A DNA stretch of 64,000 nt from Escherichia coli (lineage in GTDB: Bacteria > Pseudomonadota > Gammaproteobacteria > Enterobacterales > Enterobacteriaceae). The translations under genes and the position numbers were made by a program. The stretch lies in assembly GCF_011045215.1 (NCBI RefSeq), contig NZ_CP049201.1, one strand, 5' to 3'. This document shows positions 1,900-56,906 of this stretch, piece after piece; positions within the stretch are counted from its first letter, which is position 1, and every line of letters begins with the position of its first letter. The notes under the pieces are model-generated. The model saw only the letters and a program-made list of their open reading frames with translations. It was not told the origin of the DNA and did not search any database.

Positions 1900-2045
1900 G
1901 AAAGCCCCTCCCGAGGAAGGGGCCATAAATAAGGAAAGGGTCATGATGAAGTGGATCATCATCGTGGTGCTCTTAGTCATAAGCTTCCCGGCTTACTAAG
2001 ACTACCAGGGCGGGGGAAACCCCGCTCTACCCTCACTCCTGAAAG
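1900..2045 (-). ncRNA. sib: Sib-family antisense sRNA (antitoxin) opposite ibs copy 1; ends approximate
   Basis: Established Sib/Ibs organisation (about 140-nt antisense RNA fully overlapping the toxin ORF); flanking GC-rich hairpins (gcccctccc/ggaagggg; gcgggggaaaccccgc). Boundaries inferred, not measured. Confidence 0.45.
1943..1999 (+). CDS. ibs: Ibs-family type I toxin, 18 aa (MMKWIIIVVLLVISFPAY)
   Basis: ATG preceded by aaggaaaggg RBS; hydrophobic peptide matching the IbsA/IbsB family; too short for the ORF track. Confidence 0.75.
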   Translation: MMKWIIIVVLLVISFPAY

Positions 2046-2227
2046 TATGCCTTCACGATAAGATTGTCAATCCGCAGGCTTTGCAGTCTGCGATCCTGCC
2101 AGCAAATATTCTTTGCGAGACGTTACGCAATAATCACACTGGAAACTATTTTATCCGCAAGTCAGCGATAGACTGCATGCATGGCGAAAGGAGGTAAGCC
2201 GACGATTTCAGCGGGATGCTGAAACGG

Positions 2228-2373
2228 GAAAGCCCCTCCCGAGGAAGGGGCCTTAAATAAGGAAAGGGTCATGATGAAGCTACTCATCATCGTGGTGCTC
2301 TTAGTCATTAGCTGGCCAGCTTACTAAGACTACCAGGGCGGGGGAAACCCCGCTCAACCCTCACTCCTGAAAG
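2228..2373 (-). ncRNA. sib: Sib-family antisense sRNA opposite ibs copy 2; ends approximate
   Basis: By homology of unit 2 to unit 1 (328-bp shift). Confidence 0.45.
2271..2327 (+). CDS. ibs: Ibs-family type I toxin, 18 aa (MMKLLIIVVLLVISWPAY)
   Basis: Same position within repeat unit 2; RBS ggaaaggg; IbsB-like peptide. Confidence 0.75.
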   Translation: MMKLLIIVVLLVISWPAY

Positions 2374-2555
2374 TATGCCTTCACGGTCAGATTGTCAATC
2401 TGCAGGCTTTGCAGTCTGCGATCCTGCCAGCAAATATTCTTTGCGAGACGTTACGCAATAATCACACTGGAAACTATTTTATCCGCAAGTCAGCGATAGA
2501 CTGCATGCATGGCGAAAGGAGGTAAGCCGACGATTTCAGCGGGATGCTGAAACGG

Positions 2556-2704
2556 GAAAGCCCCTCCCGAGGAAGGGGCCTTAAATAAGGAAAGGGTTAT
2601 GAGGAAGCACGTCATCATACTGGTGATACTCTTAGTGATTAGCTTCCAGGCTTACTAAGAACACCAGGGGGAGGGGGAAACCTCTCCCTAACCCTCACTC
2701 CTGA
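2556..2704 (-). ncRNA. sib: Sib-family antisense sRNA opposite ibs copy 3; ends approximate
   Basis: By homology of unit 3 to units 1 and 2. Confidence 0.4.
2599..2658 (+). CDS. ibs: Ibs-family type I toxin, 19 aa (MRKHVIILVILLVISFQAY)
   Basis: Same position in repeat unit 3; IbsA-like peptide with P->Q near C-terminus and single Met start. Confidence 0.65.
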   Translation: MRKHVIILVILLVISFQAY

Positions 2705-2878
2705 AATTATGTCACTCCGCCCTTAGTGTCAATCGACGGCTCTCCGTTCTTGCGAGGCGAATAGCAAAATTTTCTGCGCCGCCGGGCCTAATTCTGAAAG
2801 TTTCTTCGTTTGCTCTTATTTCATTATTGCAGTCGGTATGATACCGGACCTCAATAATTCTCTAAGAAAGGATTTCTT

Positions 2879-16520: not shown

Positions 16521-18104
16521 TCACACCTCGTACTCCATCTCGCCATCTTTACGCAGTGGAATAATCTGCACTTTCTGCACGCGATGGCTTTCCACCTGCA
16601 ACGTTTTAAGCAAATAATCCCCCACCTGAACTTCTTCGCCAGGTTTTGGAATACGCTGTAAATATTCCATCAACAGCCCGGCAATGGTGTGATATTCACG
16701 TTTTTCATCCAGCGGCAGCGGCACATATTGCACCAGATCCTCCAGCGGCATATGACCATTCGCCGTCCAGGAACCGTCCGCATTCTTCTGAATATCATGG
16801 CGGGCGTCGATCTCTTCCACTTCGTTCGGTAAGTTACCGGCAATGGTTTCAGTGACGTCACTTAATGTCACAATCCCTTCCACCGAGCCAAACTCATCCA
16901 CCACAAAAGCAAAGTGCGTGCGGGCATTACGGAACTGCTCCAGGGCAGGTAACAACGGCAAGGTTTCCGGGAACACCAGCGGCTGGCGAATCAACACCCG
17001 CAGGTTGAGCGGTTCGCCGCGCAGAGACTGTTGTAGCAGGTCGATAACGTGAACAACACCGAGCAAATCTTCTGCGTCATCACCGTCGGTAACCACCAGC
17101 CGCGTATGCTGATTTCGCTCCAGTAACTGGCGGATCTCGTCTTCCGGCGCGTTGAGATCGATATGCTCAATATCGTGGCGCGACGTCATAATGCTGCTGA
17201 CGGTACGCTGGTTAAGATTTAGTACCCGCTCAATCATCCGCCGTTCCTGCGGATTAAAGATCTGCTGGTTACCATGATCCACCAGCATGGACGCGGTTTC
17301 GGCGTCCAGTTCCGCATCTTCTTTTTGCCCGCTAAGCAGGCGCATTACCGCTTCGGTAGTCCGCTGGCGCAGCGTCTGGTTAGCGGAAAGAAAACGTCGC
17401 CGGTTAAAGATAGCCAACTGATTGAGCGCCTCGATCATCACCGAGAAACCAATGGCAGCGTACAGGTAGCCTTTCGGAATGACGAAGCCGAAACCTTCTG
17501 CCACCAGGCTAAAGCCAATCATCAACAGGAAGCTTAAGCAGAGAATAACGATCGTCGGGTGACTGTTAACAAATTGCGTTAACGGCTTGCTGGCCATCAA
17601 CATCAGGCTGATAGCGATAACCACGGCGGCCATCATGACCAGTAAATGGTCGACCATCCCGACGGCGGTAATCACTGAGTCGAGTGAGAAAATGGCGTCC
17701 AGTACCACAATTTGCGTCACCACGCCCCAGAACTTCGCACCTTTGCGTTGTGTGGGATTATTGCTGTCTTTCCCTTCCAGCCGTTCGTTCAGCTCCATCG
17801 TGGCTTTGAACAACAGGAAGAAACCACCAAACAGCATGATTAAGTCGCGGGCGCTAAAGGTAAACGAGCGGAAGCTGAACAGCGGTTGAGTCAGGGTGAC
17901 CAGCCAGGAGATTGACGCCAGCAGTAACAGGCGCATTAACATCGCCAGCAGCAGCCCGGTAACCCGTGCGCGGTCGCGCTGCTTCGGCGGTAGTTTTTCG
18001 GCGAGGATGGCAATAAAGACCAGGTTATCAATGCCGAGGACCAGTTCGATCACAATCAGCGTGATTAACCCGGCCCAGATAGACGGATCGGCAATCCATT
18101 CCAT
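16521..18104 (-). CDS. yegH: TerC-family membrane protein with CBS and CorC/HlyC domains, YegH
   Basis: Track ORF 16521..18170; start set at ATG 18104 ([16 protein letters not shown]), 527 aa as in K-12 YegH. Confidence 0.88.
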
Positions 18105-18265
18105 AGTAAGTACAAAACCTATTCGTTGTATGACAAATGTCACAATTCGATCATGGATAAATCGGGGCAAAAATGCAATGTTGCAGCACTATTTATCTCA
18201 TATTATTTGAGGGTAATAACCTCACATTATCGCTGAATTAAAAGTGGTAATAATAAAACATTATT

Positions 18266-18279
18266 TAAGAAATATCGCA
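18266..18279 (+). promoter_or_regulatory. Candidate RcsAB box upstream of the colanic acid (cps) operon
   Basis: taagaaatatcgca resembles the RcsAB box consensus TaAGaatatTCctA; lies about 280 bp upstream of the JUMPstart. Match is from memory, not scored. Confidence 0.35.
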
Positions 18280-18545
18280 TGTGGAGGCGCAATATTAAAT
18301 ATTGTCAACCTAAAGAAACTCCTAAAAACCATATTGAATGACACTTAATATAATTCTTAAAAATAGCCAATTACCGAATTGTTACCTTGCCTGCTATTCC
18401 GTTAGCTGTAACACTTCCTCCTGCATTATTGGAGAGCCAATATTCAATTACCATAATGTCACCTTATATTCGGAAGTTAATTTCCGCAATAACCCTTTCT
18501 CATCAACGATTGTATGCAGAGAGGGTTTGAAAAATTAAGCTAAAT

Positions 18546-18584
18546 CAGTGTATTGGTAGCTAGAAAGCCAGGGGCGGTAGCGTG
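18546..18584 (+). promoter_or_regulatory. JUMPstart element with ops site (GGCGGTAGCGTG), RfaH-dependent antitermination signal in the cps leader
   Basis: cagtgtattggtagctagaaagccaggggcggtagcgtg; ops at 18573..18584; about 180 bp upstream of wza. Confidence 0.85.
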
Positions 18585-18762
18585 TCTGGATGCCTGAAAG
18601 ACCAGTCTGAATTATTCTGTCAATAGCCTACGGATGAAATCAATTTTTTTAGGACTGATGCCAGTTAAATTTTTATTCAATTAACTGCAAGGTAAATGTG
18701 CATGGCGACATTGCTATTAATAGTGCACAGGATAATTACTCTGCCAAAGTGATAAATAAACA

Positions 18763-19902
18763 ATGATGAAATCCAAAATGAAATTGATGCCATTATTGGT
18801 GTCAGTAACCTTGATAAGCGGTTGCACAGTACTTCCGGGCAGCAATATGTCGACGATGGGCAAAGACGTCATCAAACAGCAGGACGCTGATTTCGATCTC
18901 GACAAAATGGTGAATGTTTATCCGCTGACCCCGCGCCTGATTGACCAATTACGCCCACGCCCGAATGTAGCGCGCCCCAATATGACGCTGGAAAGTGAGA
19001 TCGCGAATTACCAGTATCGCGTCGGGCCGGGGGACGTTCTTAATGTCACCGTCTGGGATCACCCGGAACTCACCACGCCAGCCGGTCAGTACCGCAGCTC
19101 CAGCGACACCGGCAACTGGGTACAGCCTGACGGCACTATGTTTTACCCGTATATCGGCAAGGTCCACGTAGTCGGGAAAACGCTCGCTGAAATCCGCAGT
19201 GATATTACCGGGCGCTTAGCGACGTACATCGCTGACCCGCAGGTGGACGTTAATATCGCCGCCTTCCGCTCACAAAAGGCCTATATCTCCGGTCAGGTGA
19301 ATAAATCCGGTCAACAGGCGATCACCAACGTGCCACTGACTATTCTCGACGCCATCAACGCCGCAGGTGGCCTGACCGACACCGCTGACTGGCGCAACGT
19401 GGTGTTAACACACAATGGTCGCGAAGAACGCATTTCTTTGCAGGCGCTGATGCAAAACGGCGACCTCAACCAGAATCGACTGCTTTACCCCGGCGATATT
19501 CTCTACGTGCCGCGTAATGATGATCTGAAAGTGTTTGTGATGGGTGAAGTGAAGAAACAGAGCACCCTGAAAATGGACTTTAGCGGTATGACCCTGACTG
19601 AAGCCCTGGGCAATGCTGAAGGTATCGACATGACCACCTCCAACGCCAGCGGCATCTTTGTCATTCGTCCGTTGAAAGGCGAGGGCGGGCGTAACGGCAA
19701 GATTGCCAATATCTACCAGCTGGATATGTCCGATGCGACGTCGCTGGTGATGGCGACAGAATTCCGCCTGCAACCTTATGACGTGGTGTATGTCACCACC
19801 GCCCCGGTTTCCCGCTGGAACCGTCTGATCAATCAGTTGCTGCCAACTATTAGCGGTGTCCGTTACATGACGGATACAGCCAGCGACATTCATAACTGGT
19901 AA
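18763..19902 (+). CDS. wza: Outer-membrane polysaccharide export lipoprotein Wza
   Basis: 379 aa; lipoprotein signal ...LISGCTV; matches Wza. Confidence 0.95.
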
Positions 19903-32924: not shown

Positions 32925-33112
<188 letters not shown>

Positions 33113-33202
33113 AATGAATGCGAAACCGCGGTGTAAATAACGACAAAAATAAAATTGGCCGCTTCGGTCAGGGCCAACTATTGCCTGAAAAAGGGTAACG
33201 AT

Positions 33203-37530: not shown

Positions 37531-37716
37531 GCCGGATGCGGCGTAAAACGCCTTATCCATCCTACGGTTCTGTGCTCGGGACCTGTAGGCCTGATAAGAC
37601 GCGTCAGCGTCGCATCAGGCACTGAATGCCGGATGCGGCGTGAACGCCTTATCCGGCCTACGGTTCTGTGCTCGGGTCTTGTAGGCCTGATAAGACGCGT
37701 CAGCGTCGCATCAGGC
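37531..37716. repeat. BIME cluster (multiple REP palindromes) between wzxC and wcaK
   Basis: Repeated gccggatgcggcgtgaacgccttatccggcctacggttctgtgctcggg and gtaggcctgataagacgcgtcagcgtcgcatcaggc units. Confidence 0.85.
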
Positions 37717-44227: not shown

Positions 44228-44266
44228 CAGTGCTCTGGTAGCTGTAAAGCCAGGGGCGGTAGCATT
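44228..44266 (+). promoter_or_regulatory. JUMPstart element with variant ops site (GGCGGTAGCATT) in the O-antigen cluster leader
   Basis: cagtgctctggtagctgtaaagccaggggcggtagcattg, about 350 bp upstream of the first O-antigen gene; last ops positions differ from canonical GGCGGTAGCGTG. Confidence 0.75.

Positions 44267-55730: not shown

Positions 55731-56906
<1,176 letters not shown>

Follow-up and report, generated by a model that had tools for sequence, protein, structure and literature searches.

The DNA that separates yegH from wza in Escherichia coli raises the question of which of its sequences control the colanic-acid operon, and in particular whether a 14-nt sequence that resembles the RcsAB box is a genuine operator. 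The timing of colanic-acid slime capsule production in E. coli and its relatives is set by this region, which makes it relevant to biofilms, desiccation and phage resistance. The element is a textbook cps control region whose biology is already known. Confirming its annotation is housekeeping that changes nothing; the added value of this analysis is modest and lies in a comparative map that distinguishes functional blocks from filler, and that flags both a spurious RefSeq gene call and conserved leader sequences that neither RcsAB nor RfaH explains.

First, we established the identity of the locus. The window, that is the whole 64-kb stretch of DNA that was analysed, is a piece of E. coli chromosome. 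Its 658-bp gap between yegH and wza is collinear with that of K-12 and 98% identical to it, and 751 bases around the locus are matched in 4,832 of 5,426 complete E. coli genomes, nearly all of them at 95-99.6% identity. MG1655 and a K-12-like genome align to these 751 bases with zero indels, and the roughly 14 single-base differences between K-12 and the window leave site A, block D and ops (Table 1) untouched. In the closest genome, the genes are ordered as mdtABC, ..., asmA, yegH (minus strand), wza-wzb-wzc-wcaA...wcaK. The assignment to the colanic-acid (cps/wca) cluster follows from the asmA-yegH / wza-wzb-wzc-wcaA... order and from the collinearity with K-12. The original prediction had taken the locus for the colanic-acid cps control region, and this is borne out by the gene order and by the 98-99.6% identity and collinearity with E. 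coli genomes, K-12 MG1655 among them. Elsewhere in the window, we noted three tandem SIB antitoxin RNAs (ibs/sib toxin-antitoxin repeats) and, in the cps cluster, two naRNA4 (REP-derived) elements and an algC RNA motif (1928..2732, 32992..33198 and 37588..37658). In the closest genome (strain JL05; locus L084 32211..33433), the annotation gives wcaI as a frameshifted gene.

Table 1. Features of the yegH-wza region, with positions in the window
Feature	Position	Strand	Remarks
yegH (TerC family), divergently transcribed	16521..18104	-	Promoter-proximal conserved block 18130..18182
yegH-wza divergent intergenic region, cps/wca control region	18105..18762		658 bp, GC 0.348; from ORFs, annotation of collinear genomes and composition
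Site B, CACTATTTATCTCA, decayed upstream box	18191..18204	+	One half (TCTCA) kept in Escherichia
Site A, TAAGAAATATCGCA, probable RcsA-RcsB operator (RcsAB box)	18266..18279	+	-497 to -484 from the wza ATG
Block C, TTGTCAACC-TAAAGAAACTCCTA-AAAA	18302..18328	+	1.50 bits per column
Block D, CTTAATATAATTCTTAAAAAT	18344..18363	+	1.69 bits per column, invariant in Escherichia
P-down, predicted sigma-70 extended -10 promoter	18387..18415	+	TTGCCT-17 bp (ending TGt)-AACACT
JUMPstart	18546..18584	+	39 nt; Rfam RF01707, 57.3 bits against a gathering score of 35
ops, GGCGGTAGCGTG, RfaH loading site	18573..18584	+ (non-template)	190 nt before the wza ATG
Post-ops leader	18585..18762	+	178 nt, fixed length; near-invariant blocks 18611-30, 18646-72 and 18726-62
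wza, first gene of the colanic-acid operon	18763..19902	+	ORF and annotation

The DNA ahead of wza had been described as an AT-rich region of about 590 bp. Its AT-richness stands: the flanking genes both have a GC content of 0.53, compared with 0.346 for the span first proposed and 0.348 for the true gap. Its extent had to be revised: the annotated start of yegH is the ATG at 18104..18102 (minus strand) and that of wza the ATG at 18763, and the span was under-called by 66 bp because its left edge had been set at 18171, where yegH has its far TTG. The gap was also scanned for the H-NS nucleation motif TCGATAAATT; the three two-mismatch hits obtained are no enrichment over the window-wide rate. 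On the yegH side, we observed a CRP-like sequence, TATGACAAATGTCACA (18129..18144), that reads TGTGA-CATTTG-TCATA on the minus strand and matches 9/10 of the CRP core. It is kept across genera, belongs to the yegH-proximal block and lies between the yegH ATG and a putative yegH promoter (minus strand, TTGCAT-17-CATGAT).

The JUMPstart/ops assignment is unambiguous. The ops element forms the 3′ end of the 39-nt JUMPstart, agrees with the 12-nt ops consensus GGCGGTAGnnTG and sits on the wza strand, in the untranslated leader of a long operon and downstream of both candidate promoters described below. The sequence GGCGGTAGNNTG was found only once in the 64 kb, at this ops, where 0.07 occurrences are expected, and the position of ops is kept in nearly all of 80 Wza loci of other Enterobacteriaceae. 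The canonical ops announced by the original prediction is exact in its position; it is the sole match in the window and lies inside a high-scoring JUMPstart. With a permissive threshold, an Rfam scan of the region detected the JUMPstart alone; a hit to ARRPOF is noise (16.5 bits against a gathering score of 127). A second JUMPstart lies at 44228..44266, ahead of the O-antigen genes (Rfam, 55.2 bits), and carries a variant ops, GGCGGTAGCATT, whose last base is T and not G.

Expression from this locus had been stated to need RfaH, which is a stronger claim than the evidence carries. This evidence comes from strain CFT073, in which a RfaH ChIP signal was obtained at the wza ops, with the same sequence and the same -190 position (PMC9765446). 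Moreover, the signal was seen only in a delta-hns delta-stpA strain: in the wild type, H-NS binds at wza and initiation is silenced, which explains why ops is occupied only when H-NS and StpA are lacking and the locus is termed a 'cryptic' RfaH target (PMC9765446).

We then considered the candidate RcsAB box. The 14-mer of site A is found exactly where it had been placed, and it is identical in MG1655 (2137727..2137740). Compared with the published RcsAB consensus TaAGaatatTCctA (PMC4325325; PMC3950696), it agrees at 9 of 14 positions, among which are all the conserved ones (T1, A3, G4, T10, C11 and A14); with this 9/14 match, it does not appear among the matches with three mismatches or fewer. 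The box was scored by consensus and mismatch, since the readable motif instances had been selected by pattern and a position weight matrix built from them would be circular. In these consensus and mismatch scans of the window, site A is no better than chance on sequence alone. Indeed, the core T.AG.....TC..A occurs 26 times in the window where 23 are expected, which corresponds to about 0.24 expected per 658-bp gap; site A is its sole match in 18105..18762 on either strand. In addition, a 13/14 twin of site A, TAAGAAATATCGTA (56123..56136), resides inside a ugd-like coding sequence, which shows that the 14-mer by itself is not diagnostic. These chance-level counts and the coding-sequence twin are what speaks for reading the gap as a low-GC spacer, or as a horizontally acquired junction, in which the 14-mer would be a fortuitous match in AT-rich DNA.

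The comparison across species argues otherwise. We gathered 80 wza loci, one per species, from about 15 genera; for 73 of these, the 520 nt that precede ops were aligned. In this cross-genus alignment, the conservation of site A reaches 1.02 bits per column, compared with 0.25-0.31 in the 20 nt on either side. Its consensus over about 10 genera is TAGGAWATATCGCA, a sequence present in Citrobacter, Salmonella, Enterobacter, Lelliottia, Kosakonia, Phytobacter, Silvania, Huaxiibacter and others; at box position 3, most genera have G (TAGG) and not the A of the published consensus. The distance from the first base of site A to the next conserved block (TCCTA, in block C) is 53-55 bp in 44 of 45 species, and the sequence in between is unconserved despite this fixed spacing. 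By contrast, the length of the downstream leader varies from 213 to 250 across species. A similar picture emerges at short evolutionary distance: when 14 Escherichia sequences are compared, the 101 variable columns of the gap all fall outside site A, whose flanks vary at 6 of 11 positions on the left and 10 of 12 on the right (16/23).

Discrete conserved blocks, held at fixed spacing over some 15 genera with freely diverging sequence between them, together with an Escherichia polymorphism that avoids the blocks, already contradict a fortuitous match, which we regard as barely conceivable. As judged from conservation, the 14-mer is more than a product of chance. The proposal of a RcsAB box is supported by the agreement at the consensus positions, by the absence of any other match in the gap, by the conservation footprint, by the fixed spacing and by the invariance in Escherichia, and site A is very probably a RcsA-RcsB operator.

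Site A is not the only RcsB-like sequence of the region, and the question arises whether the true operator lies elsewhere. RcsB homodimers recognize sites that follow the structure-derived rule TN(G/A)GAN4TC(T/C)NA (PMC7913699). Site B takes different forms in different genera (comparison loci L027, L044, L054, L010 and L017). In Enterobacter, Lelliottia, Trabulsiella and Cedecea, it makes up a complete palindrome of the RcsB type, TGAGATTTCTCTTA, and Phytobacter and Kosakonia carry TGCGATTTATCTTA there, which repeats the site A type in the opposite orientation. The Escherichia version, with 4 variable columns, is decayed, as are those of Citrobacter and Salmonella. The homodimer rule accommodates site B in Enterobacter and Lelliottia and excludes it in Escherichia. 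In block C, the 14-mer TAAAGAAACTCCTA (18311..18324) combines a perfect RcsB-type right half, TCCTA, with an off-register left half. Block D provides a second TC(T/C)TA half-site, TCTTA, at 18355..18359. The centres of sites A, C and D are 45 and 35 bp apart.

Several of these features would suit a scenario in which block C, block D (as TAATATAATTCTTA, 18346..18359) or the remnant of site B is the true RcsAB operator, site A being conserved for another reason. Blocks C and D surpass site A in conservation (Table 1), and both have perfect RcsB-type right halves. Block C differs from the RcsB box of Salmonella yciG, TAAGAAAACTCCTA (PMC7913699), by nothing other than a swap of bases 4 and 5; it forms a full box in a few genera, for instance TGAGGATAATCCTA, and would be centred near -105 if P-down is the promoter. 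However, neither C nor D has the conserved G at position 4, which also sets them apart from the homodimer rule, and on the left side their halves are out of register or lack conservation (Citrobacter and Salmonella have TCAAT). Site A alone matches at every conserved position and is kept as a complete 14-mer, with both its halves. We therefore hold an operator located in C, D or B to be improbable.

The two halves of site A also bear on the identity of the protein that binds it. The left half, TAAGA (TAGGA), fits the RcsB half-site TN(G/A)GA perfectly (PMC7913699), and the right half, TCGCA, departs from the rule by a G at position 12 where TC(T/C)NA is prescribed. A site that breaks the homodimer rule at position 12 and has a perfect left half is what would be expected for a heterodimer. 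The same right half, which agrees neither with the RcsB rule nor with the consensus 'TCcta', could alternatively indicate that site A serves another factor or another partnership of RcsB (RcsB homodimer, BglJ-RcsB, MatA-RcsB or an unrelated regulator), the RcsA dependence of cps coming from elsewhere; RcsB indeed has several partners, whose sites share just the RcsB half (PMC3950696, PMC5651002). Yet cps is the classic RcsA-dependent target according to reviews, and the second, inverted TAAGA-N4-TCGCA-type copy present at site B in Phytobacter and Kosakonia speaks in favour of a single recognition type that is dedicated to capsule promoters under Rcs control. Recognition of site A by something other than RcsA-RcsB thus appears even less probable than an operator displaced to the neighbouring blocks, and a RcsA-RcsB operator at site A is the reading that we retain.

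Where transcription starts relative to site A can be predicted from two conserved promoter-like modules. The downstream one, P-down, would start near 18422-18425 and give a leader of about 340 nt. Across 56 species, TTGCCT is found in 48/56, TGC or TGT in 51/56 and an AACAAT -10 in 51/56, and its 17-bp spacer is ungapped. The other module, P-up, consists of a possible -10, TAATAT or TATAAT, within block D (18346..18354); a start at about 18359 is possible, in which case block C would abut the -35 and site A would be centred near -87. The P-down start would place the centres of D, C and A near -70, -105 and -150, so that site A is upstream of both predicted starts. The spacings from site A through P-down are all fixed across genera. 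A generic sigma-70 scan missed both modules and returned a single hit, 18430..18457, which we judged spurious as it falls in unconserved DNA.

P-down seems the most likely promoter, because its TTG, TG and A-11/T-7 positions are conserved and because Franconibacter keeps it and has its P-up -10 destroyed; P-up is the less likely of the two, and the use of both would be less likely still. The K-12 cps leader, which we take to be roughly 340 nt, would fit P-down as well. The distal position of site A is a further argument for P-down, given that rcsA, too, has a remote RcsAB site, some 170 bp ahead of its start, in an AT-rich, H-NS-bound DNA for which two boxes are described (PMC11879457). Under either start, the transcribed leader is predicted to be about 340-400 nt long. 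The original prediction of a long leader containing the RcsAB box therefore holds for this part of the 658 bp and not for the box, which would lie upstream of the promoter. A scan for intrinsic terminators found none in the leader.

Altogether, the analysis establishes the identity of the locus, a canonical JUMPstart/ops in its leader and a conserved, RcsAB-box-like site A at a fixed distance from promoter blocks. We consider it highly likely that these are parts of a colanic-acid operon control region, which would operate through the following Rcs-RfaH mechanism. Upon envelope stress, signalling through RcsF, IgaA, RcsC and RcsD would lead to the phosphorylation of RcsB, and phosphorylated RcsB would bind site A together with its unstable co-activator RcsA, possibly also occupying the half-sites TCCTA of block C and TCTTA of block D. 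The RcsA-RcsB complex would then overcome the H-NS silencing of this AT-rich DNA and turn on a weak sigma-70 promoter, most likely that at 18387..18415, with site A near -150, or alternatively that at 18346..18354, with site A near -87. RNA polymerase would transcribe the leader and pause at ops, where the non-template strand would recruit RfaH. This factor would protect polymerase against pausing, Rho and H-NS along the operon of more than 20 kb. RfaH may also aid ribosome loading on wza. Ribosome recruitment assisted by RfaH is part of the general knowledge on this factor, and it is plausible here because wza has no Shine-Dalgarno sequence: none was found before its ATG.

The part of the leader that follows ops deserves attention in its own right. 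The distance from ops to the wza ATG is 189-191 nt in almost every measurable species, the last 37 nt before the ATG are almost invariant, and the blocks listed in Table 1 are near-invariant across about 15 genera. This strong conservation, as read from the alignment, would be explained neither by RcsAB nor by RfaH, and the post-ops leader may be a control element, for example for CsrA, a small RNA or RfaH-coupled ribosome loading. It contains conserved GGA motifs at 18651-54 and 18729-32; that they hint at CsrA is speculation. The folding of the leader was no better than that of shuffled sequences (z = -0.51), and with RNAalifold neither 18372..18436 nor the post-ops leader showed a conserved structure, the JUMPstart hairpin excepted; an apparent GTTAC/GTAAC covariation was consequently dropped. 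No Rfam family was found for the post-ops leader.

We also considered whether the gap encodes small proteins. A mini-ORF at 18658..18684 (ATG CCA GTT AAA TTT TTA TTC AAT TAA, MPVKFLFN*) follows an AGGA, and its 8-codon length is kept in many species. We rejected it as coding, as its ATG is lost, becoming ATA or ATT, in 19 of 71 species; block 18646-72 can alternatively be taken for a small hairpin, ACTG-ATGC-CAGT, in which the variable bases make up the loop. A 66-aa ORF on the plus strand (18338..18538) was likewise discarded, spanning length-variable and unconserved sequence. The 49-aa 'hypothetical protein' WP_162829205.1, which RefSeq/PGAP places on the minus strand at 18305..18454 in many E. 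coli genomes, is almost certainly a spurious gene call, because its frame is interrupted by a stop in the window and runs over the conserved promoter blocks.

Going one step further, cps control could be viewed as a multi-site module of fixed geometry, in which site A, the half-sites of C and D and the extended -10 are maintained in about 10 genera and site B has been lost in Escherichia, Citrobacter and Salmonella, the post-ops leader perhaps being an undescribed post-transcriptional element. Such a picture, drawn from conserved blocks and their spacing, is tentative and we would not count on it; some or all of it may already be contained in Stout 1996 or later work.

Finally, these elements can be set against known systems. 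The closest is the K-12 cps (wza) promoter, with which the region shares the locus, the JUMPstart, the flanking genes and an identical 14-mer. The K-12 promoter and its RcsAB box have reportedly been mapped (Stout 1996, J Bacteriol 178:4273; Wehland & Bernhard 2000, J Biol Chem 275:7013); a literature search did not find the sequences of site A or of the promoter printed in open-access full text, and an IS1 insertion in the cps promoter is described in one supplement without coordinates. We infer that site A is the mapped K-12 box.

With the JUMPstart/ops-RfaH modules of rfaQ, hlyC, kps and the O-antigen clusters, which are said to function in antitermination (Hobbs & Reeves 1994; Bailey et al. 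1997; Artsimovitch & Landick 2002), the region has in common the 39-nt JUMPstart, the 12-nt ops, a long leader and a polysaccharide operon; it differs from them in that the wza site of CFT073 is occupied only after removal of H-NS and StpA. The box of the rcsA promoter, TAAGGATTATCCGA, at -264 from the rcsA ATG, has the 14-bp frame of site A, its conserved positions and its far-upstream placement, but its right half is TCCGA instead of TCGCA, and two boxes are described at rcsA.

With respect to the RcsB homodimer boxes of rprA, osmC and flhDC (Huesa et al. 2021), site A agrees with the half-site rules in its left half, and blocks C and D do so in their right halves. The homodimer boxes usually adjoin the -35, whereas site A would be 87-150 bp upstream of the predicted start. 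In this respect site A recalls exopolysaccharide operons of other genera. A RcsA/RcsB site is said to lie several hundred bp upstream of the EPS operon in Erwinia amylovora (amsG) and Pantoea stewartii (cpsA; Wehland et al. 1999), and that of amsG reportedly occupies -555..-533 from the amsG start, compared with -497..-484 for site A.
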